Counted from the first letter of the stretch, positions 1 to 63,050 are shown. The stretch: 63,050 bases of DNA from an uncultured virus (IMG/VR IMGVR_UViG_3300028048_001604) (IMGVR_UViG_3300028048_001604); one strand, 5' to 3'. The notes: a model not told the origin generated them from the letters alone. Program-made: numbers and translations.

Positions 1-402
1 AAATAGAAAATCATTAGTCCTTAAATACTTAAAATAGAAATCGTAGATAATGGTTGTAGTCTTACGGAAAGAATCTTTGAACTTCTTGAATACCCCATAG
101 TTTTCACAAGTACATAAGAATGTTACTGTTGTAGACATACTAATTGTCCTATGTAATTCTTTATTATTAAGTTTCATTAAGTCTATTTGAACAAACCATC
201 TATCTCCAAAAGGTGGAACAATACCCTGCAGGTCACGAACTTTTGCTAAATCCTTTTGAGTATGTACCTCAATAATAGTATCTCTCGTAGTACCTATACG
301 AGCCTTTAATTTATCTACCATATAGATTGTTAAAAGGTTACTAGGTGATTGCAAAAGTACTACATCTGGTAGAGGTCGTTCACTTAAATCTCGTAAAAGC
401 AC
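1..402 (-). CDS. Partial ORF running off the window start; possible DNA polymerase III delta (HolA)-like clamp-loader subunit
   Basis: Not in ORF track. Hand translation from GTG at 402 (AAGGAGGT RBS upstream) is open to base 1: MLLRDLSERPLPDVVLLQSPSNLL...RDLQGIVPPFGDRWFVQID. The PPFGDRWFV segment recalls the HolA LPFFxxxRLVVV motif. Confidence 0.4.
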   Translation of the reverse strand, partial: MLLRDLSERPLPDVVLLQSPSNLLTIYMVDKLKARIGTTRDTIIEVHTQKDLAKVRDLQGIVPPFGDRWFVQIDLMKLNNKELHRTISMSTTVTFLCTCENYGVFKKFKDSFRKTTTIIYDFYFKYLRTNDFLF

Positions 403-2145
403 TTATACCTCCTTGACAAAGCCAAACTGCTTTGCATTCGCTCTTAATTCATCACATAGTACTGTGATGATAGTATTATAAACCTTACCGAATTTTAATT
501 CATCCCAAAAGTCACGCTGAACCTGAACAAAGCCTGCATCCCACTCTGTAACTTTATCTCTGTCAGAATAAGACGCTGAAAAATATAACTTTACAAAATC
601 ATATAACTTCTTGGCAGTTTCAGACCAATAAGATTTTGATTCTTCAATCTGCTTTAATACAAAACCATTCTCTGCTGTAGTATTCTTAAGGTCTTCAAGT
701 ACCCTAGGGTCTTTGCATACTGATTCTACATCTGCCTTACTTAAAATAAACATCTTATTCATAAATGTAGTACCCTTACCACGATAAGAATAAGCTTTAT
801 TATCTGAATCAAGTAAGAATAATACAAGGGCATTTCTTAACCAACTAGCAAAGCCTTCGCTTTCAGTATTGGGTGCATATAATACCCTGCCCTCATAAGT
901 TGTATTGTCGGCATACAATCTTCTAAATGTATAGTTGGCTACACATCTCCAAAAGTTTTCTTCAGTGATTGATACATAGCCTTGCTTATATGGTAGAGTT
1001 GTGATACTTCTGTTATGGATATTATCATTACCCATTACACCTAAAGCACCCTCAAGAATAGGAGAAGTTACCAACTCGCCATCTTTATGTTTAATCTCAA
1101 CAGGTAACTGAAGTCTTGGTAGTACAGTCTTGAAAGCACCACTTCTATCAACTACCCAATCGTACAAAGACATGGTATCAGTATCCCTAGATACAGTAAC
1201 TGTATTCTTCAACTCAATTTTACCATCTAATGTCTTTACACGCTTTTCTAGAACTACATTAGTGTCTAGAGTTGCACTATCGAACCAGTCACCTCTTGAC
1301 TGCATAATAAGATATACAAAATCATCGGTAATAAAACCGTTATTCTCAAATTTATATACCTTGTTTAGTTGTACTAGCATATCACTAGTAGTAAAATCAA
1401 CTGGAGCAATTATGCTCAATCTGACATTTTGCTTCTGTAGAAGTACAGTAAGTAGCATAATCTGATACAGGTATTGATACCCTGTTGACTTGCTGAACGG
1501 AGTGAAGTCAGTAAAATTTAATGCTACGGTAGGCTCCTGCATTGACTTTGTTACTGCGGAACTGCCACTACCCATATTAAGAATGTCTAAATGAATTACT
1601 AATTCCTTGTCGCTATTTAATGCCTCACGCAATTTAGATGGTAGTTTACTTAAAAAACTATCTAATGTGTAGTCGTTTAATTCATACCCAATCAAATTAA
1701 AATCTGAAACGTCTACATTCGGTGTCTTATTCAAAGTCAGTGCATTTAAAACGTCTGGCTTGCAAGACATGGCAACGCAATCAAGACTGCTAGGATAGTT
1801 TAATGAATCTGAAAGTGACCATAAAAGTGTATCGTTTGAAGAAATATTTTCAAGTAACTTTGTAAATACCTCTGATTCAAGAACTGAATCAATATGTGTG
1901 GTCGTAGAAATAGTACCCTGAATTATATTCTCTAACTCAGCCTTACTTTCTTTAATCTCGTCTAAAGTACTGCCTCTATCTATAAATGTGTTTACAATAA
2001 GGTGAGTTAACCAAGCTGAACCTTCTTGCTCGTTAATATTACCTAAAATTGCACTATCTATACCATCATAGAACTGTGTTACTGATTCGTGTGTAGTCTT
2101 ACTAAAGTAAAGTACTGCACATTTGAATACATCTAAATTTAACAT
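403..2145 (-). CDS. Hypothetical protein resembling a degenerate type IIG-like DNA methyltransferase/target-recognition protein
   Basis: 580 aa. C-terminal motifs (ENFWRCV...YAPN...SETAKKL...WDAGFVQ) recall the C-terminus of MGE type IIG-like MTases, but no NPPY/DPPY or FxGxG motif is present. Confidence 0.35.
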   Translation of the reverse strand: MLNLDVFKCAVLYFSKTTHESVTQFYDGIDSAILGNINEQEGSAWLTHLIVNTFIDRGSTLDEIKESKAELENIIQGTISTTTHIDSVLESEVFTKLLENISSNDTLLWSLSDSLNYPSSLDCVAMSCKPDVLNALTLNKTPNVDVSDFNLIGYELNDYTLDSFLSKLPSKLREALNSDKELVIHLDILNMGSGSSAVTKSMQEPTVALNFTDFTPFSKSTGYQYLYQIMLLTVLLQKQNVRLSIIAPVDFTTSDMLVQLNKVYKFENNGFITDDFVYLIMQSRGDWFDSATLDTNVVLEKRVKTLDGKIELKNTVTVSRDTDTMSLYDWVVDRSGAFKTVLPRLQLPVEIKHKDGELVTSPILEGALGVMGNDNIHNRSITTLPYKQGYVSITEENFWRCVANYTFRRLYADNTTYEGRVLYAPNTESEGFASWLRNALVLFLLDSDNKAYSYRGKGTTFMNKMFILSKADVESVCKDPRVLEDLKNTTAENGFVLKQIEESKSYWSETAKKLYDFVKLYFSASYSDRDKVTEWDAGFVQVQRDFWDELKFGKVYNTIITVLCDELRANAKQFGFVKEV

Positions 2146-2159
2146 AATACTTGGTCTCC

Positions 2160-2456
2160 TTAAATAATACTAAATACTGCTACAAGAGTATAAAAAAGAG
2201 CGATGCCGATAGGAATTAATTTACCCGTATCTCCTTGTAACTTGATATGCATTATAATGCCTGCTAAACAAGTACCAATACCCAATATACCAAAACCAAT
2301 ACCCCAAGCACAACACATCATCTTCGCAGTTAAAACAAAAACATTATGTGTATGCGTAACTGATACACAAGTTAAAGGTATGAAAGCATAATAAGTTAAA
2401 CTCTGATAAAGTAAAACTAGTCCGCTTATACCCATTAGTATTGCAAATACTAGCAT
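2160..2456 (-). CDS. Small membrane protein (3 TM)
   Basis: 98 aa with three hydrophobic segments; start abuts the upstream stop. Confidence 0.7.
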   Translation of the reverse strand: MLVFAILMGISGLVLLYQSLTYYAFIPLTCVSVTHTHNVFVLTAKMMCCAWGIGFGILGIGTCLAGIIMHIKLQGDTGKLIPIGIALFYTLVAVFSII

Positions 2457-3412
2457 TACTCTTGACCCTCCAAATTCTTTACAACATCAATAAATTTGGA
2501 TGCGGTTACGATAGGGATATAGTGGTCTCCATCTTTACCCTGTCCTGCATTAAACTTTTCGTTATACCCCTGAACTTTTTTAACTTTATTTGTGTACCTT
2601 GCTGGACTTCCGTCTGCTCCTGCCCATACAAGATAATCAATACTTTTCTTAACTGAGCCTAAAAATTCTACATGAATATCTGGGAACATATTATTAATAT
2701 AACTATAAAAATCTGCCTTTGTTTTGAATGGAGAACCTACTTCATCAGAACAAACTGCAACAAGATGTTTCATACCCTCTGTATGTACTTTAATGATATT
2801 TACCCATTTTAAGCCATCTTCGAGTTCTGACTTGAATTCATATAAACTCTTATAAATTTTTAAAGCTCTGATGCTTTCACTATCATCTGAAATATCAATA
2901 CCAAGTTTCTTTTTGATAAAGGTTGTATCTGAACCAATATGTTTATAAGCCTCATCGAGGTCATCAAAATCAGCAAAAATCTGTGTGGCAGATGTCTGTA
3001 CATCTGGGATATTTGCTAGGCGTACATACTCTGGCAAAGTAAAACTGTTCTTTGCTCTAAACTGGTCTGTAATCTTTTTCATAGCGTCAACAGATACCCC
3101 ATCTGGTACACCGTCATGCTCTGGTTCATATGTAAAAACAGCAAGTGGATTCTGCATATTAAACTTAGCCAAATAATCTATAATCTTACGAGCCATAGAC
3201 TCACCTACGCCTTTTACCCCAAGACTACTAGCCATAGCTACCAAACGTCTTGTTAGTTTACTAGGGCAACGTGGGTTGCTACAACAAAGATGTGTTAAAA
3301 CATCACTAATCTCTGTAGGGTAATTACAAATAGGACATTTTGTAGGAATACTCTCAAAGAATTCAACAGGTAAGTCTCCATTGTTATTATTCTTAAACTC
3401 TGATACTAGCAT
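2456..3412 (-). CDS. ligA: NAD-dependent DNA ligase C-terminal module (C4 Zn finger, HhH, BRCT) as a stand-alone gene
   Basis: PTKCPIC...LCCSNPRCP Zn finger, LGVKGVGESMA HhH, C-terminal BRCT-like GSVKKSIDYLVWAG...KVKK...IPIV. Start moved to ATG 3412 (AGAAAGGA RBS); track start 3502 overlaps the upstream gene. Confidence 0.8.
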   Translation of the reverse strand: MLVSEFKNNNNGDLPVEFFESIPTKCPICNYPTEISDVLTHLCCSNPRCPSKLTRRLVAMASSLGVKGVGESMARKIIDYLAKFNMQNPLAVFTYEPEHDGVPDGVSVDAMKKITDQFRAKNSFTLPEYVRLANIPDVQTSATQIFADFDDLDEAYKHIGSDTTFIKKKLGIDISDDSESIRALKIYKSLYEFKSELEDGLKWVNIIKVHTEGMKHLVAVCSDEVGSPFKTKADFYSYINNMFPDIHVEFLGSVKKSIDYLVWAGADGSPARYTNKVKKVQGYNEKFNAGQGKDGDHYIPIVTASKFIDVVKNLEGQE

Positions 3413-3431
3413 ATAACGTATCCTTTCTAAA

Positions 3432-3800
3432 TTAGGTTTCTGGGATATAAAGTGACAGGAAGTTTCCTCTTTCAAAATAAGGTTTTGTAACTGACTTATC
3501 AATAGGCTTAACTGCTACGCATTTGAATGTTTTCTTTGTATCATCACTATATGTTACCCGAACTTCAAATACATCTCCATAAGATACTACCTTAGCAATT
3601 TCAGATGCACCCTCATAGGTCTTACCCTTGTTTGTGTAGGTGTACTTAATAATCTCACGTTGTTCATCTTCAATCTGAGGTGGTACATCTAAAGAACGTA
3701 TCTTATTAATCTCGTGCAACCTATAAAGACATACGATGTCAATCGCTATTAATACTAACAGGACAAAAATATATACCTTATACTTTTCAATCAGCCTCAT
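3432..3800 (-). CDS. Membrane-anchored hypothetical protein
   Basis: 122 aa, N-terminal TM helix, AAGGAGG RBS. Confidence 0.7.
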   Translation of the reverse strand: MRLIEKYKVYIFVLLVLIAIDIVCLYRLHEINKIRSLDVPPQIEDEQREIIKYTYTNKGKTYEGASEIAKVVSYGDVFEVRVTYSDDTKKTFKCVAVKPIDKSVTKPYFERGNFLSLYIPET

Positions 3801-30048: not shown

Positions 30049-30085
30049 AATACCACCTCATTAACTAAATACTTTAATTTATTAT

Positions 30086-30114
30086 ATTATAACATAAAGT
30101 ATGCTTTCTGTGAA
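30086..30114 (-). promoter_or_regulatory. RNase H/sortase operon promoter TTCACA-17-TATAAT; -35 partly supplied by the IS right end
   Basis: Minus strand TTCACAgaaagcatactttaTGtTATAAT. Confidence 0.7.
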
Positions 30115-30524
30115 CACCCCCATATGCTTAAGCATAGGGGATTCTGTTACTAAATTTATTTATAGCAACTTGTTCATCTGCATATTCGGAAAAGACTTAG
30201 CTTTATACTCTGACGAGCAGTATCACCACATCTAAACTATTATACAGATGACTGAATCCTTAATTTCTACTGCATAACTTGATGTTAATTTCACACAATC
30301 TCTTTTCCGTAAGTTATTTATCACTCTCTAACTCTAAAATTCTTTGTATCATATACAAAATACAATCTGGAGTATTTCTCCAACCTTGTTCCCAAGATTG
30401 AAGTGTTTTCAAATGTATATGAGATTCTTTAGCAAATTGACTTTGACTAAGCCTCGTTTGCTTTCTTAATTCTAAAATAATTCTATTTTTTATAAGTTTA
30501 TTATACCACAATATAGGGTAAATA
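30111..30524 (-). mobile_element. Internally deleted IS200/IS605-family (tnpB-type) miniature element
   Basis: Right-end hairpin AATCCCCTATGCTTAAGCATATGGGGGTGTTCA; XRE HTH gene; short tnpB-like N-terminal stub (VKLTSSYAVEIK, 30259-30294); left junction follows TTGA(T). Confidence 0.6.
30314..30511 (-). CDS. XRE-family HTH protein (start uncertain, possibly degenerate)
   Basis: ELRKQTRLSQSQFA...KTLQSWEQG. The track's TTG start lies inside a promoter (TG-TATAAT). Confidence 0.7.
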   Translation of the reverse strand: MWYNKLIKNRIILELRKQTRLSQSQFAKESHIHLKTLQSWEQGWRNTPDCILYMIQRILELESDK

Positions 30525-39656: not shown

Positions 39657-39757
39657 AAAATTTCCTCCTGTCTTGATATTAGTATGTGACATATTATAGA
39701 AAATATCGAAATTATTTCACACTATATTATAACAATATACCACGCAATCAAGAACAT

Positions 39758-41248: not shown

Positions 41249-41368
41249 AATAGCAAAAGCAATAATAAATAATACCCCCGTGTGCGTGATATACCCGTTC
41301 CTTTCTTACGTGAAATACTAACCTGATACCCTTAGGTATGCTTACTAAAATATAATACCCAATATGGC

Positions 41369-43565: not shown

Positions 43566-44984
43566 TTATTCATCGTAATCGTCTACATACTCTACCCAGT
43601 CATCTTCATCATCTAGAGTTAAAGCATTCTTAATCTTACCATCTACTAAAGGAGTTCCATCCTCGAAACAAGGAACTACACCTGCCTCACCGCCATAACG
43701 GAAATAGATAAGATTACCTGCATATGCGTCTAGAATTACCATGTTTGCTGGTTCATAAAGAGGAACTCGTCTAACACGATTGCCTGCTGCAGTCAATACC
43801 CCTAATTCAGATATATTATCTACTTCTTTTTCGCTTGTGATATAAGGGTGGTAACACAAGTCACCAAACTCTATATCATTTTCGCCTTCTGAAATAATGG
43901 CAACGGGGCTTAACTTTGACTTTCCTGCCTTCCAATAGATAGTCTGGATAAATCCGCAGTACATATCCTGCTTCCAATACCCAACCTTGAGAGCGATATT
44001 ACCAAACTTATAGTGACCGCCATCATCTCCGAAACTTCTAAAGGTCTTTTTATCATTAATTGTGAATACAATACCATCGGTATAGTAGGCATACCCTTGA
44101 AAGCCTGTGCTTTCGTCTGGTACAACATCTGCCTCACAATCAGAAACAATACCTTTTAGGTCAGAGATTAACGATTCCTTTGTTAAGTCTGGAATTTCCC
44201 AAGCAAGTGGTACTTCAAAACCTAAAGACTCAAGGTAATCATACTCTTCTGATTTGCTGGAAAATGAGTCTGATTCGTTAGATAACATCTCATAGGCTAC
44301 AAAATGAAGTAGATTCCATTCTTCTTCTGTACCTGATTCTCTACCCATAGAAGATACGGCACTAAAAGGTGACTTAATATCTGGATTAAAACTTCTTGCT
44401 TTATCCATATTATCGAAAGGCAGTACCCATTCTCCTCTGATTTCACAAATGCTTAAACCCGAAATATCGTCAATATAAGTAAGACCGTCTCGTTCTAGGA
44501 TTACCCTAAGCTGGGCAGTAATGTCTTTACCTGCCGAATGTCTAGCTCTACTGCGAGCCTTCTTAAACTTACCATACTCATATACAAGTCTGATACCATG
44601 ACCATTCAACTTAACAGATGCGTGACCATCAAATACAAAGCCATCGGGCATCCTGTTGACATAATCACGCAATTCGTCACAATCAAAGGACTTGACTGTT
44701 TGAATACTGTACATTGGGTTTGACTTAAAAACTGCGTCATCATCAGTGAGGTCTGTACCGCCATCTTCCCAAATAGCTTTAAGTACATCAGCGTCTGGAT
44801 TAATGTGCTTAAGAATTGCTACCATACGGTCATAAATGGCATCTGGTACGATAGGGTCTCCCATATTCATAGCATCGTTGCACTTCTTAATATGGTCGAT
44901 AAGAGACTCAACCTGCTCATTTGTAAGCGAATCTACCCCATTTTCATCTACGCAACCTAGTAATGCGTCTAACTCTAAATTCAT
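43566..44984 (-). CDS. ligA: NAD-dependent DNA ligase N-terminal part (Ia, adenylation and OB domains; no Zn/HhH/BRCT)
   Basis: PDAIYD, PMYSIQ, motif I SVKLNG, EIRGE, TDGIV, IALK, KLSPVA; ends after the OB fold. Confidence 0.85.
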   Translation of the reverse strand: MNLELDALLGCVDENGVDSLTNEQVESLIDHIKKCNDAMNMGDPIVPDAIYDRMVAILKHINPDADVLKAIWEDGGTDLTDDDAVFKSNPMYSIQTVKSFDCDELRDYVNRMPDGFVFDGHASVKLNGHGIRLVYEYGKFKKARSRARHSAGKDITAQLRVILERDGLTYIDDISGLSICEIRGEWVLPFDNMDKARSFNPDIKSPFSAVSSMGRESGTEEEWNLLHFVAYEMLSNESDSFSSKSEEYDYLESLGFEVPLAWEIPDLTKESLISDLKGIVSDCEADVVPDESTGFQGYAYYTDGIVFTINDKKTFRSFGDDGGHYKFGNIALKVGYWKQDMYCGFIQTIYWKAGKSKLSPVAIISEGENDIEFGDLCYHPYITSEKEVDNISELGVLTAAGNRVRRVPLYEPANMVILDAYAGNLIYFRYGGEAGVVPCFEDGTPLVDGKIKNALTLDDEDDWVEYVDDYDE

Positions 44985-45314: not shown

Positions 45315-45614
45315 TTAATACTGCATATCTAAATGTGACGGGAAGAATAATTTACCACATTTGTTGCAAAAATAATAGTAAACTACCCGATACCCATCAC
45401 GGTCTACTACATCAAACTGTTGCTTAGGCAACCATTGAATATACCCATAAGCACAAGCGTGTCTTAATAGTTCGGGAAATTCATCAATACGTTGTACCTG
45501 TATCTGTGCTGGATTTATATTATACTGCATAGCTAACTGCTCTCTCAAAGCCGTAAGTATTTGACTTGTTGAGAATTTAAGCATTTGATACCCCATGTAA
45601 TCCATACCAATCAC
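45315..45614 (-). CDS. Hypothetical Zn-binding protein
   Basis: HAC...FCNKCGK. Confidence 0.7.
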   Translation of the reverse strand: MIGMDYMGYQMLKFSTSQILTALREQLAMQYNINPAQIQVQRIDEFPELLRHACAYGYIQWLPKQQFDVVDRDGYRVVYYYFCNKCGKLFFPSHLDMQY

Positions 45615-46549
45615 CTCTTTTTGTAAAAATATAACCAGCCTTCGTCATCTTCATTACAAAAGAATTCTAAATGATGTCTGGTTCCAAAAATACCCAATTT
45701 GCTTGGTGGTAGATACGCACATAATAATTTATTTGGAAACTGCTCGATATATCCTAGGATTGACTTCTCAATGTTACGAAAATCTAAATCTACATTTTCA
45801 AAGTCTCCTGAACTAAATACCTCATCTCGACTATAATAAACATCACTCGAGTCTTCTACATAAAGCATTTTAATATCGTTGAATCTGATATGCTTTTTCT
45901 TTTCGCTCGTAGTAACAAAATTTAACTTTGCTACAATACTAAATATCATACCATAAGAATCGCATATATCTTCAAAACATTCTAAAGCCTTCTGTTTTGC
46001 GGTATCGTCTTTATGCTCTAAATAGTAAGAGCAGTGCATATAATCTAAGAAATTTTGAACCTCTACTTTACTTGTAGGTTTATTCTTCTGCTTGTAGATT
46101 AAACGCATATCTCTAGACCAAACAGTTTGTTTTTCACGATAAAGAGTCTTTACATTACATACCCCATCTAATATAAGTTCATCGATTACAGTGTTAAGAT
46201 TTAATAACTGTACAGTTGTGTTGTAGTTCTCACCACCATAAACACCTTCTACCAAGCAATAGTCAAAACTTCTACCCTTTACTATTTCTTCAAGATGCTT
46301 TTTAAAGACTCGTCTTTGCTTTATTGCCCACATAGGAGAAACAGACTCGTCTTGAATACCCTCTTTGCGACTTAAATGAAAATAATACTCCTCAAAACTA
46401 GAGCCATTCCAAATTACTACCCCTGTATGCAAAGGTGCTATATCTAACGTAATAGCTGTACCATGTAACAAGGTCATAATATTTAATTCATTGACTGCCT
46501 CTACTTTTGAGGTATCTTCACAACAATCTTCTAAACCATAATTAATCAT
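45611..46549 (-). CDS. RuvC-like (RNase H fold) nuclease / Holliday junction resolvase
   Basis: ITLDIAPLHTGVVIW, CLVEG, EDICDS acidic triad pattern. Confidence 0.65.
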   Translation of the reverse strand: MINYGLEDCCEDTSKVEAVNELNIMTLLHGTAITLDIAPLHTGVVIWNGSSFEEYYFHLSRKEGIQDESVSPMWAIKQRRVFKKHLEEIVKGRSFDYCLVEGVYGGENYNTTVQLLNLNTVIDELILDGVCNVKTLYREKQTVWSRDMRLIYKQKNKPTSKVEVQNFLDYMHCSYYLEHKDDTAKQKALECFEDICDSYGMIFSIVAKLNFVTTSEKKKHIRFNDIKMLYVEDSSDVYYSRDEVFSSGDFENVDLDFRNIEKSILGYIEQFPNKLLCAYLPPSKLGIFGTRHHLEFFCNEDDEGWLYFYKKR

Positions 46550-47108
46550 ACAAATGCTTTTCGGTGGCTATCATCTTGACGTTTTCAGAATTGAGTGCGT
46601 CAAGACTATGTGTGCCTACCCGATTTTTCCTAATCTCCCTAATATAATCATTACGAGTATAACGATACTTCATAATATCTATCTTGCGTAATTTACGAAG
46701 ATATTTACCCTCATAATCGTCTTCTGATAGTTCAGATAACTCTGGCAGTTGAATACCAAACTTGGCTGCTAGGTCACGACAAGCGTCTTCAACATTTAAT
46801 CTATTATTATGATAAAGCTCTTCTATCTGCTGATGCAGACGTATTACATTACCCGACTTACCGCAACCGAAACAATGGTAGATATATTGACCTTTGTGAG
46901 TACGGTCTGGTATATACCCCATTGATGGGTTTACATCTTCATGGTCTGGAAACCAACATAATACCAACTTATCTTCTAAAAAGCTCCAACGTGAAAATTC
47001 ACGTCTTAATGGTTTGATATATCGTTCATAATAGGTTGCCAATGTTACTACTAATTCGCCTGTTTCTGAGTCTCTATATTCTAGGATAAAATCTTCTAAA
47101 CTAGACAT
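46542..47108 (-). CDS. Stand-alone primase CHC2 zinc-binding domain protein
   Basis: LCWFPDHEDVNPSM...YHCFGCGKSGNVI...ACRDLAAKFGI; no TOPRIM domain. Confidence 0.8.
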   Translation of the reverse strand: MSSLEDFILEYRDSETGELVVTLATYYERYIKPLRREFSRWSFLEDKLVLCWFPDHEDVNPSMGYIPDRTHKGQYIYHCFGCGKSGNVIRLHQQIEELYHNNRLNVEDACRDLAAKFGIQLPELSELSEDDYEGKYLRKLRKIDIMKYRYTRNDYIREIRKNRVGTHSLDALNSENVKMIATEKHLYD

Positions 47109-52457: not shown

Positions 52458-53990
52458 TTATACCCCATCGATGCTATAAAATAAGCAACTTCGTAAGTCT
52501 ATGTTAATCTTAATATCACGGAAAGGTCTAGCCATTCTACTAGGTACAGACATAATAGTCATCTCACGTCTCTGTAAATCTTCTACCGATGCGTACAGGG
52601 CGATATTAATATCTGGTGTTCTAATAATCTCGGAAGATTCACCACCTGCTGTTCGAGTTTCGTGTCCTACCCCCTCTTTGCTATTCTGCATCTCCTTCAT
52701 AAAGTCCTGAGTAAACTGAGATGGAGAAATAGCCATAACATTTCTTTTCTTACAATAAGCAAGCAAATCCTGATAAGCTTTACCAATAGCCTGTGGTTTT
52801 GATAAATTCTTGCTATCCCAACCAATCAACTGTAGGTAGTCAATACAAACTGCTTTAGACTGATTCATCTGCACCGAGGTTTCAATTTCATCTATAAAAG
52901 TTTCAACCTTAAACGGTCTATCAATCATATACATATTACCATAGTTAATATTGGTAAATAAGTCTAGACGTGATGCCTCTTCAAGCATTTTAATTTCTTC
53001 TGATGGGTAATCATCATACAAAATCTCGCGTTGAGATAGAGGTGCAACTTTTTCACTTTCAGACTTGTTTCTAATATACATATACTCAAAGTGAATAGCA
53101 CGCATCTGTGCCCACCAAGCTTTGTATCCACCTTCGTGTGCCCATACAGATACATTGTGACCGTTCATCAAAATAGTATGAACTGTTCTGGCACACCATT
53201 TTGACTTACCACCTTTAGTGGGTGCCATGATGTTGTAAAACATAGATGTGTAATACCCACCTAATTCTGTATTAAGCTCATTGATTAAATCAAAGTTACC
53301 CAAAAGCTCTGGCTTGGCAGTCTTATCATCGTCTACAATACCCTGGGTACGGGAGTCAATAAAGCCTACACCACTTGTCTGGTCTAAAACTGCGTCAACA
53401 TCAGCGACTACCTTTTTAATATAGGCTACCGAATCGTCATACCCTTGATAAAACTTTCTGCCTACCTGTACACCATCATACAGAATAAGTTTTGATGTGC
53501 TATAAGCCTTGTTTACCTCATAAGCAGAAAACTCTTGTTTATACTTTTCAAGGCTTAATGTAAAATCATCATGATTTAACGGTTCTAGTTGCATTAAACG
53601 ATTAAACTGTTTAAGTACACCTGAAACATACCCAATCAAAGGATTGTCATCTAAGTCTTTATACGCATTTACATCAATATACGCAACTGCATCTTTAATC
53701 AGCTTTGTATTCCTTGTAAGGTGCAACTTGATGAATTCTTCGTCTGGTGTAATACCCTTATCCTTGAAGTTATAGAAAACTTTATAGATGATATAATTCT
53801 CGTCTTTGAATACCTCTGGCGGAACCTGACCAAAAATATATCTTCTATTACTTAATGATAAGTCGTCTTTATGAATGATACTTTGAATGAGAGTATCGCT
53901 TAATACAGACAAACGCTCATCTGGAGTAAGTTCATACCCTGTTGGCTCTTCCGTACTTGGCATATTGTTTTCTAAAACACTATTATCCAT
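52458..53990 (-). CDS. dnaB: DnaB-like (SF4) replicative helicase
   Basis: Walker A MAPTKGGKS, WAHE, CIDYLQL, SPSQF motifs. Confidence 0.82.
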   Translation of the reverse strand: MDNSVLENNMPSTEEPTGYELTPDERLSVLSDTLIQSIIHKDDLSLSNRRYIFGQVPPEVFKDENYIIYKVFYNFKDKGITPDEEFIKLHLTRNTKLIKDAVAYIDVNAYKDLDDNPLIGYVSGVLKQFNRLMQLEPLNHDDFTLSLEKYKQEFSAYEVNKAYSTSKLILYDGVQVGRKFYQGYDDSVAYIKKVVADVDAVLDQTSGVGFIDSRTQGIVDDDKTAKPELLGNFDLINELNTELGGYYTSMFYNIMAPTKGGKSKWCARTVHTILMNGHNVSVWAHEGGYKAWWAQMRAIHFEYMYIRNKSESEKVAPLSQREILYDDYPSEEIKMLEEASRLDLFTNINYGNMYMIDRPFKVETFIDEIETSVQMNQSKAVCIDYLQLIGWDSKNLSKPQAIGKAYQDLLAYCKKRNVMAISPSQFTQDFMKEMQNSKEGVGHETRTAGGESSEIIRTPDINIALYASVEDLQRREMTIMSVPSRMARPFRDIKINIDLRSCLFYSIDGV

Positions 53991-54805: not shown

Positions 54806-56977
54806 TTATACAGGAATCAACTGATTTGCCTTAAACTGAATATCAGTACTATTTACCTGCTTATGAAGTACATCTTTATAAACTTCATTTGTAGCAACAT
54901 TAACTGCAATATCAGTTAGTGTGGTTGGAAGAATCGAATCAATAACAGAGTTTGTAGTATTTCTAAAGGCTCTAGTTCTAGCCTTACGGTCTTTATGTTT
55001 CAACTCTGATGGGATACACCAGCCTACCCTTGCATCCTTGGTCGTTACAAAGAGTGCCTCTGGAATCTGATTTTCATGGAATACCATGCATAGCTTATCT
55101 GCATGAGCAGTTGAAATACCCTTTTCGAGTACCTTTACACGTCTATTATTACCTACAAATTCTGATTCGTCTACAAAACCTACACAACCATCATTGTAAA
55201 GTAACATGAGAGTTTCGCCTGTTAGTCTACTAATCCAAACTACCTTATAGTCTTGGTCTGTCTCGCTGATACCACACATTCTAGGAATGTACTGACCTAA
55301 ACCTGACATAGCACTCATAGGCATATCCTCGCAATAGATACGCATGAGTCTACCCTTGTTATCCAGCGCAATAAGAGTATCTGATGCAGTACCAACAAAC
55401 GAAATGACGTCAGAACTCTTATCTGCTACTGGGTTTGGAGTCTTTCTCAAGAAATTACCCTTCATAGTGTAATAGCAAGTAGAAGTATCCTTGATGTCCT
55501 CTGCCTTAGTATCAGATTTATCGCCTGTAAAGTTGTAATCTGTCTTAGATACCTTTGTAAGGCGTGGCATACGCTTTCCGTATTTTGCAATAAGAGAATC
55601 CATCTGCTTTGAGATAACTGTATCAATATCAGCAAGATTATTCTCTAGCTCTTTAATCTCTAGCTGGATTGTATTAAAAGTAGTCTTATACTTACCACCG
55701 TCATTATAGACAGACAAAGCACGATTTGTTACAAAATCAATATACTCCTCTGGAATATCGTCTCTAGAGAAGTTTTCTTTAATGTACTTCGCTCCTGCAC
55801 GTTTACCATTTTTTGTAACAATATTAACGAATTCGATACATTTTTCTCTATCATTTACAACTGTCATAACCGCCTTTGATTCTTTAAGAGCCTCTTTTGC
55901 ATCCTCAAGACGATAGTTGTATTCCTTCTCTAGAACGGAACGTCTCCAAGCTACCCAGTGCTCAATGATACCCCATACACCTAAAATGATTGGCATACCA
56001 TCTTCAATTACAGTCATATCAGCTGAATAAGTGTACTGAAAATCTGTATTCTTATACAAATCATATATTGCCTCTTGTACAGCCTGCTTATTTTTACAGT
56101 TAACTGTAAAGGCAATACCATGTGTTAAATCTGAAGAATCATATGCGTTCTTAATGTAATCAGATTCAAGATTATTAATCTGATGTACAATATTCTGAAT
56201 CTTCTTACCATAAGGAAGATTGGTTACATCAATCTTACTTCCATTAACGATATATGAACCTCGAAGTTTGAGTTTTGCTCTACCCGTTTGCATGAGTTTC
56301 TGCAACTCCTTGGCGTCATGTACATATTCTCCGCCTGTAACAAAATCTGGCTCAATAACAGTAGTACACTTACCGTCTTTAATATACTCTTTTACAAGAT
56401 TACAAACGTCTGTAAAGTTAAAAGACGGCATATTAGACTTAAAGCCGACTGCAATACCCGATGATGCATTGACAAGTATAGCTGGGAAAGATACAGGCAA
56501 CTCGACAGGCTCTGTTTCAGTACTATCGAAGTTTGGAATCATTGTAATACCATGCATCTCACCAAAGAATTCATCAGCCTGAGGTGGGTAAGCAAGCTCT
56601 GTGTATCGAGCTGCTGCTGGTTTATCAGTATCAATAACTGAAGAAAAGGCTCCTGTACCCTTTAACAAAGGAAATGCCATGCTACCATTACTATCTGTCA
56701 TAGGAACGGCAGACTTATAAATAGATGCATCTCCATGTGGGTGCAAAGCGAGTACATTACCCGTTAGTCTTGCAGACTTAATTGGAGCAGTCGATTTACT
56801 CTTTTTCAGAGTAAAAATAATACGTCTCTGTACAGGTTTCAGACCGTCATGCAAACTTGCAAGTGCTCTGTCTGTAATAACTGACATACCATATTCAATA
56901 TACCCGTCAGCAAGGTAACGTACACCTGAACTCATATTTTTCAAATCGGTTACAGTTTTATTCAAATCCTCGGACAT
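54806..56977 (-). CDS. gyrA: Type IIA topoisomerase subunit A (GyrA/ParC-like)
   Basis: DRAL...DGLKPVQRR, KSAR, HPHGDASIY, AAARYTE (catalytic Tyr), GIAVG; short divergent CTD with no evident GyrA box. Confidence 0.9.
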   Translation of the reverse strand: MSEDLNKTVTDLKNMSSGVRYLADGYIEYGMSVITDRALASLHDGLKPVQRRIIFTLKKSKSTAPIKSARLTGNVLALHPHGDASIYKSAVPMTDSNGSMAFPLLKGTGAFSSVIDTDKPAAARYTELAYPPQADEFFGEMHGITMIPNFDSTETEPVELPVSFPAILVNASSGIAVGFKSNMPSFNFTDVCNLVKEYIKDGKCTTVIEPDFVTGGEYVHDAKELQKLMQTGRAKLKLRGSYIVNGSKIDVTNLPYGKKIQNIVHQINNLESDYIKNAYDSSDLTHGIAFTVNCKNKQAVQEAIYDLYKNTDFQYTYSADMTVIEDGMPIILGVWGIIEHWVAWRRSVLEKEYNYRLEDAKEALKESKAVMTVVNDREKCIEFVNIVTKNGKRAGAKYIKENFSRDDIPEEYIDFVTNRALSVYNDGGKYKTTFNTIQLEIKELENNLADIDTVISKQMDSLIAKYGKRMPRLTKVSKTDYNFTGDKSDTKAEDIKDTSTCYYTMKGNFLRKTPNPVADKSSDVISFVGTASDTLIALDNKGRLMRIYCEDMPMSAMSGLGQYIPRMCGISETDQDYKVVWISRLTGETLMLLYNDGCVGFVDESEFVGNNRRVKVLEKGISTAHADKLCMVFHENQIPEALFVTTKDARVGWCIPSELKHKDRKARTRAFRNTTNSVIDSILPTTLTDIAVNVATNEVYKDVLHKQVNSTDIQFKANQLIPV

Positions 56978-58988: not shown

Positions 58989-58993
58989 ATGCT

Positions 58994-59686: not shown

Positions 59687-61981
59687 TTAAATGTCTACAT
59701 CAACAACTTCTGTATCGTCACCAATATCCTCACTATCAATAGATTCAAGGATAAGAGCATTTTCTTCCATCATATCTGCTACTTCTTTACCAAGTACTGC
59801 GGTAAGAATACCCTTTCTCTGCTTATACTTATCTGCACCAAACAGTGCGTCAATAAATTCACACTCAGTCTCATTCGAGAAGTCACAATTCAGAGGAATC
59901 AAATTTCTTGTAGCTGGGTTAATAGTCGTTTCAGATAGAATATCAGCATTAACCTCACCAAGTCCCTTAAATCTGGATACCTTCTTTACATTACCCTTAC
60001 GCTTGTTTAGAATCTTATCTCTTTCAGCATCGTTACGTGCATAGAGTACCTCACCACTATGCAAGTCAATCTTGAATCTTGGAGTTTCTCCAATGAATAC
60101 ATGACCTTCTGTGATAAGTCTTGGTGCGAGTTTATAAATGGTTAGAAATAACAGTACCCTAATCTGGTAGCCATCTTCATCTGCATCTGTACCAAAGATG
60201 ATTTTGTTAAACCTAAGTTTACTAATATCAAAATGCGACTCCATACCCTTGATTGAGATGTCAAAGCCTGTACCCAACAGAGCGAATATTTCTCTAATCT
60301 CCTTGTTAGCAAGAATACGGTCATACCCTGCTTTAGCTACATTAAGACCTTTACCTCTAACTGGATAGATGGCTTGAAACGTCTTATCCCTAGCCTTTTT
60401 AATACCGTTCATAGCAGAGTCGCCCTCTACAATCCAAAGTTCAGCCTTATCATAGTGCTTACTTTCGTATGCATCGCAAGATACAAATTTCTCTGGCTCT
60501 TTTTCACGTGTGACCTTTTTAGATTCACGAACAATCTTCTCCTGCATCTTAATGGTCTCACGTACTTCTGCGTTCTGAATAACAGCCTCTACTACATTTA
60601 CAATATCTGGATTACCCTTTGCGTATTCTGTTTCAAGAATCTTTGTAACTGCATTGTAAACCAAAGTATAAATAAATGTATCGTCAATACCGTCTTTAGT
60701 CTGACCTCTAAATGATGCATAGTTAGACTGTGTGCTGACAACTACATCGAAAGAAACTAAATAATCTCTTTCTTCGAGTTTTGAATACCCCTTTGACCTT
60801 GCTTTAGTTTTAAGGAATGTTACAATGGCGTCATTTACACCTGAGTACTGAACACCACTATTCATGTGTACAAAATTGTGATGACAACTAACAATATTTC
60901 TTTCTGCATTTTCCTTTGTAGGTGTGAGAGCAACATCACAATGTGCGACATAAGTAAATGGTTTCTCGTTTACAGTAATATCTCCATGAGAGAAATTTGT
61001 AGACGTAAGAACGTGTCTATCTGAGCTAAAAAGCTCTGAAATACTGCCTGCAGTATAAATCTCGTCTTTACCCGTGTTATCGTCAACGAAATGTAATTCA
61101 ATATTGGCTACCTTTGCGATGTCTTTACATACCCCAATAAGCCAATCACCACCAATATTTACGTCTGAGAATACAAGAGAATCTGGTTTCCAATAGATAA
61201 AAGTACCATTAGGCTCGTCTGTATCCTTGATTTCTTCGGGAATAGCCTTAATCTGCTCAGTTGTGAGGGCTTTATCGAACATATCAAATTTTTCGCCGTT
61301 AACCAAAGGATACCCGTTCTTGAATGAACGAGATGTGACTTTACCATCTCTATAAGACTTAACAGTAAAAAATTCAGATGTGTACTGAGTTGATGCTGCT
61401 CCAAGACCATTAAGACCAACTGATGCCAGATAATTGAGTCTTCTGTTTAAGAACTCCCAAGTAACGGTATCCCAAGTCTGATTGTTTACCCTGAGTACGA
61501 CATCAGTACCATCGATTTTTACATCAATATCGGCATAGGAATGAGATTCTCCGTCTTTAGGAATGTCTGCAATCGGAGTTACATTAGATTCAAAACCCTT
61601 TACGAAATCTATATCGTTCATGCTAAATCTAGCATAGTTTCCGATACCCCTCAAGTACCACTGACCATTATCGTACTTACCACCACCATAAAGTTCATTA
61701 TAGATGATGTGCCAGTTCCAAGTCATATTCTTTTCATTCCAACCAAGTGGTACACCTCTACCATAATCTCGTACAGAAACTGCACCATTCTTGTAGTAAT
61801 GAACCTCAAGTTTGTCACCATAGCCTGCTGACTTTTCATCTAAAGCATTACCATAAATTTCTGTAAAACCGTGTCTTGCACCATCAAGTCCTGAACTACC
61901 CAACATGGATGCTGCACGTTTACGAACTCTTCTAGCACCACTAAGCAAATCGATACTATCATCGTTGTACTGTTTAGCCAT
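59687..61981 (-). CDS. gyrB: Type IIA topoisomerase subunit B (GyrB/ParE-like)
   Basis: EIYGNALDE, DYGRGVP, GGKYD...GLNGLG, VEGDSA, PVRGK, TDADEDG, RFKGLGE. Confidence 0.92.
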   Translation of the reverse strand: MAKQYNDDSIDLLSGARRVRKRAASMLGSSGLDGARHGFTEIYGNALDEKSAGYGDKLEVHYYKNGAVSVRDYGRGVPLGWNEKNMTWNWHIIYNELYGGGKYDNGQWYLRGIGNYARFSMNDIDFVKGFESNVTPIADIPKDGESHSYADIDVKIDGTDVVLRVNNQTWDTVTWEFLNRRLNYLASVGLNGLGAASTQYTSEFFTVKSYRDGKVTSRSFKNGYPLVNGEKFDMFDKALTTEQIKAIPEEIKDTDEPNGTFIYWKPDSLVFSDVNIGGDWLIGVCKDIAKVANIELHFVDDNTGKDEIYTAGSISELFSSDRHVLTSTNFSHGDITVNEKPFTYVAHCDVALTPTKENAERNIVSCHHNFVHMNSGVQYSGVNDAIVTFLKTKARSKGYSKLEERDYLVSFDVVVSTQSNYASFRGQTKDGIDDTFIYTLVYNAVTKILETEYAKGNPDIVNVVEAVIQNAEVRETIKMQEKIVRESKKVTREKEPEKFVSCDAYESKHYDKAELWIVEGDSAMNGIKKARDKTFQAIYPVRGKGLNVAKAGYDRILANKEIREIFALLGTGFDISIKGMESHFDISKLRFNKIIFGTDADEDGYQIRVLLFLTIYKLAPRLITEGHVFIGETPRFKIDLHSGEVLYARNDAERDKILNKRKGNVKKVSRFKGLGEVNADILSETTINPATRNLIPLNCDFSNETECEFIDALFGADKYKQRKGILTAVLGKEVADMMEENALILESIDSEDIGDDTEVVDVDI

Positions 61982-62200: not shown

Positions 62201-62235
62201 CTCTTGTATTTCCTTTCATTTTAGATTTTAATAGT

Positions 62236-62264
62236 ATTATAGCATATTGACTTTTATTTGTCAA
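62236..62264 (-). promoter_or_regulatory. Sigma-A promoter TTGACA-17-TATAAT with extended TG, for the topoisomerase B operon
   Basis: Minus strand TTGACAaataaaagtcaataTGcTATAAT. Confidence 0.85.
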
Positions 62265-62295
62265 TATTACCTGCTAAAAAATAAACGAGCCTGCC

Positions 62296-63050
62296 TTAAT
62301 GCTTAAGCAAATTGAGTGGACTACTGTTGTTTAATGAACCAATATCCCTTGCAGGTTCATCTGGAATAACAGAAATGGCAAGAGGAACCTCGCAACTTGC
62401 CTCTTGCTCATGAATAGTAGCATTATCCATGATAAATTTACCCGTATCTGTTTCACTTGCATTACAGTCAGTAACAATAATTGTAGGTAGTTTTCGCTGA
62501 CCTCTATATCTTACTAAACCGAATATACTATCAACTTCATTCCTTGTTCGATTACCCATTAACTGTATTACACAAACTTGATTGTTATACAAATCTCTTT
62601 CATTAATGTAAGGTGTGAGGTACTCTGCATCGTCTGGTAATAATCTATTTTGAATTATTCTAATAATTTCATCTACTGTACAATAAGATACTATGGTTAA
62701 GCCTGCTATATACCCTTTCTTTAGGCACTCTACATGGAAGTCCATAAGATTACATCTTCTACCCAAGCTAATTACATATGACTTATCTGGTAGAGTGTCT
62801 GCATTGTACTTTGATACTATATCTTCCATCAAAGACTTAATCTTTTCAAACTGTACTTTCTGCTGACTTGTTAGCTGTTCCTTAACAGACTTCGGTATTA
62901 CATCATCGGAAATAAAAGAATCTCCGTGTGCAGTACCCTTGGTTCTGAGTATTTCGTCTAAGTCTTTGTACTCAACATCCTCATCGTTTAAAAGTAACTT
63001 CTTGCGTATGTTAGCACAATATTCACACTCAACGTACTTACGCTTGTATG
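62296..63050 (-). CDS. Partial ORF starting beyond the window; degenerate DnaC/DnaI-like helicase-loader fold
   Basis: Frame stays open upstream of the track start to the window end (...YVECEYCANIRK...). C-terminal VRYRGQRKLPTIIVTD resembles the DnaC/IstB R..xxLPTIITSN motif; Walker A not recognisable. Confidence 0.45.
   Translation of the reverse strand, partial: YKRKYVECEYCANIRKKLLLNDEDVEYKDLDEILRTKGTAHGDSFISDDVIPKSVKEQLTSQQKVQFEKIKSLMEDIVSKYNADTLPDKSYVISLGRRCNLMDFHVECLKKGYIAGLTIVSYCTVDEIIRIIQNRLLPDDAEYLTPYINERDLYNNQVCVIQLMGNRTRNEVDSIFGLVRYRGQRKLPTIIVTDCNASETDTGKFIMDNATIHEQEASCEVPLAISVIPDEPARDIGSLNNSSPLNLLKH

Follow-up and report, generated by a model that had tools for sequence, protein, structure and literature searches.

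All 65 genes predicted in the window, i.e. the whole analyzed stretch of 63,050 nt, lie on the minus strand. The products of ten of them match proteins of pXO16 (E≤1e-4; 25-45% identity), and the order of the corresponding genes is kept, running from 188 kb to 98 kb of that replicon. Plasmid pXO16 (= pBTHD789-1, NC_018516.1) is a 349,599-bp circular, aggregation-mediated conjugative plasmid of Bacillus thuringiensis sv. israelensis. By these matches, the window represents the replication region of a distant pXO16 relative and is not an ordinary phage. The collinear replication module common to both elements is composed of genes for GyrB, GyrA, a DnaB-like helicase, a stand-alone CHC2 zinc finger, a RuvC-like nuclease, a split NAD-dependent DNA ligase and a ParB-HNH protein. 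The distinguished features of the window are:

59687..61981, minus strand: GyrB-like topoisomerase II subunit B (Pfam Toprim and DNA_gyraseB; 41% identity to pXO16)
54806..56977, minus strand: GyrA-like topoisomerase II subunit A (Pfam DNA_topoisoIV, E=1.8e-84; 38% identity to pXO16)
52458..53990, minus strand: DnaB-like replicative helicase of 510 aa whose N-terminal part is of DnaB type (PHROG phrog_19; weak Pfam DnaB_C match; 40% identity to pXO16; atlas look-alikes)
46542..47108, minus strand: stand-alone CHC2 (DnaG-type) zinc-finger protein, 188 aa, a candidate reader of the word described below
45611..46549, minus strand: putative RuvC-like nuclease, 312 aa, the start of its gene overlapping the end of the zinc-finger gene
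43566..44984, minus strand: adenylation half of the NAD-dependent DNA ligase (Pfam DNA_ligase_aden; phrog_3869 positions 4-330; 45% identity to pXO16)
38310..39692, minus strand: ParB-N + HNH nuclease, 460 aa (Pfam HNH and ParB_N; 42% identity to pXO16)
2456..3502, minus strand: C-terminal half of the NAD-dependent DNA ligase (phrog_3869 positions 390-624; 40% identity to pXO16)
1..63050, minus strand: array of 385 copies of GGGTA (consensus W-GGGTA-K; mean spacing 164 nt; 6.1 per kb)
41249..41368, minus strand: intercistronic non-coding stretch in which the word occurs four times and no promoter is recognizable
29485..30616, minus strand: longest word-free gap (1131 nt), covering the 5′ part of an RNase H gene, a 265-nt promoter region and a small HTH gene

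The zinc-finger protein matches Pfam Zn_ribbon_DnaG (E=9.5e-9), the DnaG zinc-binding domain 1D0Q (E=9e-4) and PHROG primase families. It is conserved and syntenic in pXO16 (30% identity) and in a plasmid of B. velezensis. The adjoining 312-aa ORF does not encode the primase catalytic domain: residues D36, E101, D194 and D197, within the blocks GLDiS, IEdv and D..DA, are invariant among 139 relatives, and from these conserved motifs we read the protein as probably RuvC-like. No primase catalytic domain was found among the 65 proteins of the window, while pXO16 encodes a stand-alone Toprim_2 protein (E=2.8e-9); a search of pXO16 for DNAG_N found it absent. The two ligase halves are encoded 40 kb apart.

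Both elements have their genes on one strand (422 of 440 ORF calls in pXO16), both lack GATC and GGCC, and both carry a polar word with a GGGTA core. The G+C content of the word-bearing DNA is 33-36%, with G exceeding C on the word-bearing strand. They differ in host, Bacillus for pXO16 and a cattle-gut Firmicute for the window element, and the ten matching proteins are the only ones recognizably in common. The window also encodes a T2SSE-type ATPase, PBP1A, a sortase, a signal peptidase and YkuD, all without a match in pXO16, an element whose conjugative ssDNA transfer is by the tip locus.

A preliminary description of this DNA had reported a pervasive, one-strand GGGTA motif, and the asymmetry proved stronger than claimed: on the plus strand of the whole window TACCC occurs 385 times and GGGTA 17 times, which, given the gene orientation, places GGGTA on the coding strand. 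The hand tallies made there for positions 1-5000 (recounted as 31 and 1) and 45001-47000 (14 and 0) are reproduced, as is the two-copy example at 45381-45398, where the reverse complement reads GATGGGTATCGGGTAGTT. When all 5-mers of the coding strand are counted, GGGTA ranks first (59.9 copies expected from base composition). Each full 5-kb bin holds 23-34 TACCC and 0-4 GGGTA on the plus strand. GGGT is followed by A in 385 of 414 cases, and the flanks carry no information beyond W and K. GGGTC is strongly avoided in a strand-specific manner (1 vs 15.4 expected in the window and 7 vs 59 in pXO16); GGGTG, which would match the anti-Shine-Dalgarno sequence better, is likewise avoided rather than preferred in the window.

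In-gene copies are made in every reading frame, as had been noted (xxG-GGT-A, 191; xGG-GTA, 97; GGG-TAx, 75), and the word is as dense in non-coding as in coding DNA of the window. Intercistronic and 3′-UTR stretches carry it, whereas 13 intergenic regions classed by eye as promoter-bearing, 1,453 nt in all, contain no copy, against 8.9 expected at window density. A comparable non-homopolymer word was found in none of 129 other sequences of at least 10 kb used as a control set, the highest GGGTA/TACCC density among them being 1.6 per kb.

Selection on the word acts at the nucleotide level and is near saturation. The 363 in-gene copies compare with 108.2±8.5 after within-gene synonymous shuffling (maximum of 133 in 300 shuffles) and with 73.8±7.2 under a context-free codon null, giving an observed/expected ratio of 3.4-4.9, rather than one near 1, and z of ~30-40 over these two codon-preserving nulls. 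The reverse word is at chance in the genes (14 vs 17.8±3.8, synonymous shuffle). Codon choice depends on whether the word is formed, as had been suspected: GGG encodes Gly in 75 of 93 cases before Tyr vs 64 of 1131 elsewhere, and AGG encodes Arg in 38 of 52 cases before GTA vs 73 of 690 elsewhere. Val following xGG is encoded by GTA in 97 of 101 cases, and A comes next after G-GGT in 189 of 207 cases vs 223 of 530. In total, 361 of 679 synonymous opportunities are used. The synonymous nulls and conditional codon tests thus uphold the earlier view that the nucleic-acid word, not the protein, is selected.

The copies are spaced more evenly than random placement would give, with 12 intervals shorter than 20 nt (vs 29.2±4.4) and 11 gaps longer than 500 nt (vs 18.3±2.8). 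An opportunity is used in 68-71% of cases when isolated and in ~40% when another lies within 20 nt. Clusters are rarer than expected (4 vs 15.3), so of the non-coding cluster described at 41270-41360 the four copies are real, but the special clustering is not. In six orthologous genes only 5 of 54 copies coincide with pXO16 copies; the core is kept at ~40% protein identity while individual sites turn over. Even spacing, the preferential use of isolated opportunities and the few coincident sites show that coverage is selected, not particular sites.

The pXO16 word is one G longer (W-GGGGTA-K, most commonly AGGGGTAG) and three times sparser than that of the window (1.9 vs 6.1 per kb). Counts on the two strands are 658 vs 5 for GGGGTA and 461 vs 2 for AGGGGTA. 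Copies are spread round the whole circle at 14-26 per 10 kb with a single polarity, and the GC skew never flips over the 349,599 bp; this one polarity round the entire circle is compatible with handling of the strand as one unit, and conjugation of pXO16 sends single-stranded DNA (PMC6199540). Non-coding density is at least equal to coding density (168 non-coding copies vs 8.2 expected from composition). The word serves as the Shine-Dalgarno sequence of 86 of 422 pXO16 genes, a role added to whatever else it does; start codons downstream of in-gene copies are not above background. No start codon lies near 64 of the 168 non-coding copies, and predicted untranscribed spacers hold 3 copies vs ~0.4 from composition. 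These non-coding, start-codon-free and spacer copies argue for a signal at the DNA level.

Enrichment shared with the host, which would have spoken for a host signal, was not seen in two replicons of the relative's host group, a plasmid and a phage. The co-resident 235-kb plasmid pBTHD789-2 carries 15+21 copies, below its reversed-pattern control (31+31), and Bacillus phage Kirov 14+13, also below its control (21+23), so the word is specific to the element. Co-variation of its form is also seen between the relatives (GGGTA in the window, GGGGTA in pXO16), and in a third syntenic relative, which keeps the zinc finger, the word is weak (GGTTA, 609 vs 402). In distant huge phages whose base skew is the same, the word is not enriched (0.4-1.3x). 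An oriented signal, as originally proposed, is supported by these data. The likeness to pXO16 and the one-strand word round its whole circle point further, to the handling of single-stranded DNA (second-strand priming or transfer), which the preliminary description had not considered.

Several other explanations have to be weighed. Coding on one strand alone produces strong asymmetry of many purine-rich words, as seen in control loci. Nevertheless, it is scarcely credible that the word lacks a function and simply reflects codon, dicodon or amino-acid usage or a context-dependent mutation bias: codon usage as its source is refuted by the codon-preserving nulls, the spacing is regular, non-coding DNA is equally rich in copies, the core persists at a protein identity at which sites turn over, and the equally skewed huge phages lack the enrichment. 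A Chi-like signal, by which the word would attenuate a RecBCD/AddAB-type helicase-nuclease entering from a DNA end and so protect the element, is very improbable. With copies numerous and regularly spaced, degradation starting at any break would be limited, B. subtilis has a 5-nt Chi that is likewise polar and G-rich, and counts of AGCGG/CCGCT in a Bacillus plasmid (117 and 150 vs ~44-50 expected) indicate that Chi-type words can reach ~1.8 per kb. However, the word is specific to the element and differs in form between relatives, AGCGG itself is depleted (9 vs 30 in the window, 83 vs 147 in pXO16), enrichment and polarity lie far above the Chi yardstick, and no helicase-nuclease was seen in the window; the host signal of this kind suggested earlier is therefore disfavoured. 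The suggested phage packaging mark is unlikely as well, given that the nearest relative is a conjugative plasmid. Possible, though unlikely, is a word for transfer or translocation, acting in one direction on one strand either as a dispersed oriT-like nick site (e.g. for ParB-HNH as a nickase) or as a polar handle by which an FtsK/SpoIIIE- or VirD4-type motor is loaded and oriented on the strand destined for export. KOPS and SRS, known motor-orienting words, are G-rich and polar, and FtsK/SpoIIIE-domain proteins are annotated in pXO16 adjoining the replication module. ParB-HNH ranks among the best conserved proteins common to the window and pXO16, and the single polarity round the circle fits. 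The accessible text of PMC9673590 describes pXO16 as an element whose oriT and relaxase have not been identified, yet which mobilizes plasmids devoid of both and moves chromosomal segments of at least 791 kb. A search of pXO16 for relaxase families found none, and chance copies of the word every 6-7 kb in other Bacillus replicons could explain promiscuous mobilization. Against this, one or a few nick sites would suffice, so that even coverage at 100-500 nt and near-saturation are not expected, and nicking one strand so densely would seem costly. Among the 65 proteins of the window none resembles FtsK. KOPS and SRS are 8-mers, roughly a hundredfold sparser, and converge on the terminus; of the KOPS-like signal raised in the preliminary description the polarity thus fits, while density and convergence do not.

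Less probable again is a transcription or RNA signal, in which an element-encoded factor would read the word on the non-template strand (ops-like) or in mRNA (GGGUA) and promote RNA polymerase processivity or mark or protect transcripts. The word always lies on the coding (non-template) strand, and with the genes all pointing one way, such a signal accounts for each of the polarity results just as well. The presence of copies in intercistronic and 3′-UTR stretches, their absence from the 13 promoter-bearing regions, the occurrence of the window stretch in metatranscriptome runs and the Shine-Dalgarno role in pXO16 are all in its favour. The GGTA loop of ops (GGCGGTAGCGTG) is read by RfaH on the non-template strand, according to excerpts of PMC5995543, and resembles the commonest pXO16 form given above; RfaH-like activators can occur on conjugative plasmids (PMC11880322, likewise in excerpt). 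No NusG-type protein was matched among the 65 proteins of the window, though, and a search of pXO16 returned only a 14.2-bit match (cut-off, 22.2 bits) inside an FHA-domain protein. At the position at which ops requires C3 the word has G, and a single ops per operon leader contrasts with one copy of the word every 160-500 nt. Predicted untranscribed spacers of pXO16 keep the word, in-gene copies show no start-codon excess downstream and GGGTG is avoided. The sigma-A promoters and terminators of the window are ordinary, one every few kb, and long-range antitermination is not obviously needed.

We favour, tentatively and at clearly less than an even chance, the reading of the word as a dispersed, orientation-specific priming signal on a strand that is displaced or transferred in single-stranded form. 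Unidirectional (rolling-circle-like) replication would displace the strand bearing the genes, the G>C skew and the word, and/or conjugation would send it to the recipient; once exposed, this strand would be primed repeatedly, in the manner of a lagging-strand template. The reader of 5′-GGG(G)T-A-3′ may be an element-encoded split DnaG-type primase, made up of two separately encoded parts, the CHC2 zinc finger (window and pXO16) and a TOPRIM protein (pXO16). Primers would start opposite T and be rich in C (pppACCC...), the 3′ A remaining an unread ‘cryptic’ base. Since DNA of 33-36% G+C would by chance contain too few copies of a G-rich word, selection would write them wherever they are tolerated, one per 100-500 nt.

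The primase of T7 uses sites 5′-(G/T)2GTC-3′ and makes ACCC-type primers (177 sites in ~37 kb, i.e. 4.8 per kb), according to the available part of PMC12839067. A single zinc-finger change shifts its specificity from GTC to GTA/GTG, Firmicute DnaG has a cryptic 3′ A, and the zinc finger can work in trans (PMC12839067, PMC2978363, both in part). Plasmid primases and orientation-specific single-strand origins are established means of priming transferred or rolling-circle single-stranded DNA (PMC4595007, in part).

Several observations count against priming. No primase catalytic domain is encoded in the window and the neighbour of the zinc finger appears RuvC-like, the 13 promoter-bearing intergenic regions lack the word, the third relative keeps the zinc finger yet has a weak word, and the avoidance of GGGTC is not predicted. 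Moreover, simple arithmetic on the 177 T7 sites indicates that these are not enriched, and we know of no precedent for selection-driven enrichment of primase sites. If the priming reading is true, a ‘second-strand code’ would extend across giant one-strand Firmicute mobile elements, pXO16 included, with a 5-7-nt word in over half of the permissive positions of one strand. Wherever rolling-circle replication or arrival in a recipient exposed single-stranded DNA, the split primase of the element itself would find a priming site no more than a few hundred bases away. The word would then act as a single-strand origin in dispersed form, and would be the first case known to us in which selection has shaped primase sites replicon-wide. 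In pXO16, with no known oriT or relaxase, it might also be a start point of DNA processing.

The uptake sequences DUS and USS of Neisseria and Haemophilus, used in dsDNA uptake by competence pili, resemble the word in their genome-wide excess in coding (all frames) and non-coding DNA. They are 9-12-mers present on both strands at about one per kb, whereas the word occupies one strand and measures 5-7 nt (core, 5-6 nt). Chi of B. subtilis (AGCGG) is similarly short, polar, G-rich and over-represented, but it is a host-wide signal, while the word belongs to the element and is absent from pBTHD789-2 and Kirov. The Chi-type excess in the control plasmid is ~2.6-3x on both strands, compared with 5-8x over codon nulls and a polarity of 22:1 to 130:1 for the word, and the polarity of Chi switches between replichores, which that of the pXO16 word does not. 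The 8-mers KOPS and SRS, which orient FtsK/SpoIIIE, share with the word a G-rich composition and strong polarity, and pXO16 encodes proteins with the FtsK/SpoIIIE domain. Their polarity switches at the origin and they converge on dif, in contrast to the word of pXO16, whose circle shows no switch of polarity or GC skew.

The ops element, like the word, lies on the non-template strand and has a GGTA core, which in ops is contacted by RfaH (PMC5995543, in part). Its consensus GGCGGTAGnnTG includes a C3:G8 pair and stands as a single copy in the operon leader, whereas the word is dense and has G at C3; the ops reader is a NusG paralogue, of which the window yielded none and pXO16 only the sub-cut-off match. 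Sites of T7 gp4 and Firmicute DnaG (5′-CTA/TTA-3′) are short words on a single-stranded template, at which initiation takes place opposite an inner base and the 3′ base is cryptic; the form GGG(G)T-A would be compatible with such a site. In the available text of PMC12839067 the best T7 site (GGGTC) has a GGGT core identical to that of the window word and the density of T7 sites is similar (4.8 vs 6.1 per kb), and the final A of the word could match the cryptic 3′ A of Firmicute DnaG (PMC2978363, in part). The T7 sites are at chance level, unlike the word with its 5-8x excess over codon nulls. A co-oriented displaced strand would be expected to have more G than C, as the word-bearing strand does. 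The sso of rolling-circle plasmids and ICEBs1 is an orientation-specific start of second-strand synthesis on the displaced or transferred strand, which parallels the strict polarity of the word (PMC4595007, in part); it is one structured element of 100-200 nt, present once or a few times per replicon, whereas the word consists of hundreds of unstructured 5-7-nt copies.

Counting across the 63,050-bp, 36% G+C window gave 385 copies of TACCC vs 17 of GGGTA on the + strand, distributed evenly along its length. Gene calls cover 93.5% of the window, and all 65 are on the minus strand; read along the coding strand, the word is therefore GGGTA. It is the most over-represented 5-mer in the window (59.9 copies are expected from composition), and GGGT is followed by A in 385 of 414 cases. 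The preliminary description had flagged GGGTA as strand-polarised, and its four specific figures on counts and positions proved correct on recount. No comparable word was found in the 129 other sequences of at least 10 kb used for comparison. The 33:3 GGGTA bias of another locus (L005) is explained by base composition (1.3x), and in distant huge phages the word occurs at 0.4-1.3x.

Within genes, 363 copies were observed vs 108.2±8.5 after synonymous shuffling within genes (maximum 133 in 300 shuffles), and the reverse word occurs at expectation (14 vs 17.8). A second null, with codons resampled from usage outside the word, yielded 73.8±7.2 copies. Codon choice in the window is conditional on making the word. 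Glycine is encoded by GGG in 75 of 93 cases before tyrosine vs 64 of 1131 elsewhere, and arginine by AGG in 38 of 52 cases before GTA vs 73 of 690 elsewhere; valine following xGG is encoded by GTA in 97 of 101 cases, and the base following G-GGT is A in 189 of 207. The word is realised at 361 of the 679 positions permitted by the protein sequence, i.e. 53% of synonymous opportunities, and word-permitting dipeptides are mildly enriched (QG 1.67x, GY 1.47x). Its density is 5.4 per kb in non-coding vs 6.2 per kb in coding DNA. A separate hexamer, GCAGGC, is also biased to the coding strand (46 copies vs 2 of its complement; 44 vs 16.2 under the codon null); it was rejected as a second polar signal, since it reaches only 2.7x the codon null and lies mostly in one frame (Ala-Gly).

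The consensus in the window is W-GGGTA-K. The 5′ flanking base follows the preference A>T>G>C, the 3′ flanking base exceeds the null 8.3x for T, 5.3x for G, 3.3x for A and 2.9x for C, and the flanks add little overall. Avoidance of near-cognates with a different final base is confined to the coding strand (GGGTG 0.39x, GGGTT 0.38x). GGGTC is found there once vs 15.4 copies under the codon null; the complement, GACCC, shows no such deficit (21 vs 15.1). This strand-specific avoidance of GGGTC is accounted for by none of the readings offered here.

Spacing in the window was compared with a null in which realised labels were permuted among potential sites. Spacings below 20 nt (12 vs 29.2±4.4) and gaps above 500 nt (11 vs 18.3±2.8) are both fewer than expected, and the coefficient of variation (CV) is 0.83 vs 0.98. 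An opportunity standing alone is taken 68-71% of the time, vs about 40% for one with a neighbour within 20 nt. Clusters of the word are scarcer than under random placement (4 vs 15.3), which rules out an origin-like cluster. The regular placement and the paucity of clusters indicate that selection favours coverage rather than count or particular sites. Some reverse-orientation copies pair with a forward copy as the two arms of a hairpin; the terminator-like stem at about 39767-39790 (window 39759-39790) is an example. The distance to a forward copy is at most 40 nt for 9 of the 17 reverse copies, with about 6.6 estimated by chance.

The following features were distinguished in the window:
Window, minus strand: GyrA- and GyrB-like topoisomerase subunits
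Window, minus strand: DnaB-like helicase
Window, minus strand: stand-alone CHC2 (DnaG-type) zinc finger
Window, minus strand: RNase H
Window, minus strand: ParB-HNH nuclease
2456-3502, minus strand: C-terminal half of a split NAD-dependent DNA ligase
43566-44984, minus strand: adenylation half of the same ligase
6353-7447, minus strand: T2SSE-type ATPase
7456-8703, minus strand: YkuD L,D-transpeptidase
24498-25061, minus strand: signal peptidase I
25067-27910, minus strand: class A penicillin-binding protein (PBP)
28630-29352, minus strand: sortase
23178-23432, minus strand: HPr-like protein
37584-37943, minus strand: receiver-only response regulator

The T2SSE-type ATPase, YkuD, signal peptidase I, PBP and sortase make up a cell-envelope set, which on a mobile element would fit a Gram-positive mating apparatus. 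For the 1723-aa ORF at 30623-35794, Pfam, PHROG and a tblastn against phages gave no match, and the window contains no tRNA. Its promoters resemble those of sigma-A, with GGAGG as the Shine-Dalgarno sequence. Three features make up the longest word-free stretch (29362-30622): the RNase H gene, where the density is 1.5 copies per kb, a promoter region of 265 nt, and a small HTH gene that has 0 copies. The stretch may have been acquired recently or have a regulatory role. GATC and GGCC are wholly absent from the window (0 vs about 180-200 and 54-63 expected, respectively), and CCGG (2), CGCG (3) and GCGC (3) are nearly so, which looks like restriction-site avoidance.

A phage megablast search returned no hit, and neither two exact window strings nor the GyrA-like protein found a match in viral_contigs, where alignment scans gave relatives at 24-29% identity only, or none. 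Scans of genome_contigs and metagenome_contigs were dominated by ordinary gyrases, the best identity among the matches listed being 41%. At protein level, the GyrA-like protein has relatives that share 45-59% identity with it and are encoded on contigs as long as 589 kb. Public runs from 16 studies of bovine gut metagenomes contain the element, RNA libraries among them; strains about 5-6% diverged from the window are present in three further studies (2234 differences, in runs made up of contigs).

The closest readable relative is pBTHD789-1 (NC_018516.1) of Bacillus thuringiensis HD-789, whose GyrA shares 37.7% identity; 10 of the 65 window proteins match this plasmid in conserved order. None of the cell-envelope proteins is among the matches. 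The ligase halves, about 40 kb apart in the window, are separate in the plasmid too (45% and 40% identity). The record is the conjugative plasmid pXO16 (PMC6199540), which, in the sections consulted, is described as transferring single-stranded DNA (PMC6199540) and completing transfer of its 350 kb in 3.5-4 min (PMC6199540, PMC9673590). Its 42-kb locus at 163519-205492 also contains 0 GATC and 0 GGCC; GATC is not avoided in a syntenic B. velezensis plasmid (849 copies).

In pXO16 the word is one G longer. GGGGTA occurs 658 vs 5 times by strand, at 14-26 per 10 kb round the whole circle, and AGGGGTA 461 vs 2 times (20 and 1 for the reversed-pattern control); the consensus is W-GGGGTA-K. The plasmid has 422 of 440 ORF calls on one strand and a GC skew of constant sign. 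GGGGTA is enriched in genes (490 vs 59.3 under the codon null) and in non-coding DNA (168 vs 8.2 from composition), and glycine is encoded by GGG in 316 of 459 cases before GTA vs 511 of 5174 elsewhere. GGGTC is avoided here as well (7 vs 59.1) and GACCC again is not (132 vs 64.2). Spacing is regular (CV 0.71), with 3 spacings below 30 nt vs 36 expected and 2 gaps above 2 kb vs 15. Of the 54 window copies in six pairs of orthologous genes, just 5 coincide (±1 codon) with one of the 27 in pXO16 (1.3 by chance): the sites turn over and the density is kept.

GGGGTA occupies the Shine-Dalgarno position (-20 to -1) of 86 of the 422 pXO16 genes, about as often as GGAGG (84). ATG is not above background after in-gene copies, and 64 non-coding copies have no nearby start codon. 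We read the G-richer form as dual use, with a Shine-Dalgarno role in addition. Ribosome binding was rejected as the main function, given the lack of ATG excess after internal copies and the presence of the word upstream of only 6 of the 65 window genes.

A co-resident 235-kb plasmid of the pXO16 strain carries 15+21 copies of GGGGTA (control 31+31), and 14+13 (control 21+23) were counted in Bacillus phage Kirov, whose gyrase module is related. These low counts indicate that the word belongs to the element and not to the host. Its element specificity, together with a form that co-varies between relatives, argues for an element-encoded reader. Only a weak word (GGTTA, 609 vs 402) is present in the syntenic B. 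velezensis plasmid (216 kb), 254 of whose 280 ORFs share one strand. The Bacillus sp. PM8313 plasmid NZ_CP083581.1 was considered as a member of the same kind and proved not to be one. Its top over-represented words are AGCGG/CCGCT (117 and 150 vs about 44-50 expected, 2.6-3x, on both strands), and AGCGG is the B. subtilis Chi sequence. The counts serve as a measure of how far a host Chi can be enriched on a plasmid; AGCGG is depleted in both the window and pXO16.

A word that is specific to the element, confined to one strand round the whole circle, evenly spaced and selected both within and outside genes points to a process in which that strand is handled in single-stranded form. The reading we rank first, tentatively, is a dispersed priming word, on the basis of this distribution, a T7-like core, and the zinc finger and Toprim_2 genes. 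Second-strand synthesis on rolling-circle or transferred single-stranded DNA requires primers, and these would be laid down at dispersed copies, the spacing scale being 100-500 nt. Known priming on such DNA, as covered in part of PMC4595007, relies on plasmid-encoded primases and orientation-specific single-strand origins. T7 primase sites are 5′-(G/T)2GTC-3′, with primers ACCC and the like and 177 sites in about 37 kb (PMC12839067, in part). The word shares the core of the best T7 site, and its final A would stand in the place of the cryptic base. In the relevant passages of PMC2978363, one zinc-finger substitution gives T7 this very change, the cryptic base of Firmicute DnaG is A, and the primase zinc finger determines template specificity and works in trans. 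The stand-alone zinc finger, kept in the replication module of both the window and pXO16, may read the word and set template specificity. The residues before its knuckle are I-Y-H-C in the window, I-F-H-C in pXO16 and T-C-N-C in the weak-word plasmid, an anecdotal comparison (n=3). pXO16 also encodes a stand-alone Toprim_2 protein. The window yielded no primase catalytic domain: the ORF overlapping the zinc-finger gene, a candidate for it, was rejected as RuvC-like, and the N-terminal part of the DnaB-like helicase did not qualify as a TOPRIM domain. Besides this negative result, weak points of dispersed priming are the avoidance of GGGTC and the B. velezensis plasmid, where the zinc finger is kept but the word is not strong. 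To our knowledge, selection-enriched primase sites have no precedent, which also counts against it.

A word acting in transfer, translocation or nicking is unlikely, yet it would suit pXO16, which, in the passages available from PMC6199540 and PMC9673590, promiscuously mobilises DNA lacking oriT or other transfer signals, and has no known relaxase or oriT of its own. FtsK/SpoIIIE-domain proteins of pXO16 and the conserved ParB-HNH nuclease also favour such a role, under which selection for coverage would not be expected. Slightly less probable still is an ops-like or RNA-level signal: the GGTA core is common to both, and RfaH reads ops on the non-template strand (PMC5995543, in part), but no NusG-type reader was found among window or pXO16 proteins and the word has G where ops requires C3. 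In the absence of any inverted gene, transcription would account for every polarity result equally well, which also bears on the priming reading. The evidence for DNA vs RNA is thin and mixed. Predicted untranscribed spacers of pXO16 hold 3 copies (about 0.4 from composition, 4.4 at uniform density), in a terminator-to-promoter test of low power (the strict script selected 19 intergenic regions of pXO16 and 1 of the window); 13 promoter-bearing intergenic regions of the window (1,453 nt), classified by eye, hold 0. A Chi-like signal is improbable in view of the co-resident plasmid, phage Kirov and the AGCGG counts, and the same kind of controls leaves very little room for a word of no function.

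The word belongs to a family that includes pXO16, a plasmid well studied, yet still unexplained in the review passages at hand (PMC9673590). The word offers a concrete, testable handle on DNA processing by pXO16-like elements, and a sequence signature for finding metagenome relatives with proteins too divergent to annotate. It is unreported in the searchable literature, including pXO16 review passages; the primary pXO16 sequence papers lie beyond that scope and may bear on it. Short polar words such as Chi, KOPS and uptake sequences are among the few cases in which codon choice visibly yields to selection on how DNA is handled. The kind is already known, and what differs here is the density, saturation, single polarity over a whole replicon and element specificity. 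Compared with Chi, KOPS and uptake sequences, this word is far denser and more polar, with 22:1 to 130:1 of its copies on one strand.
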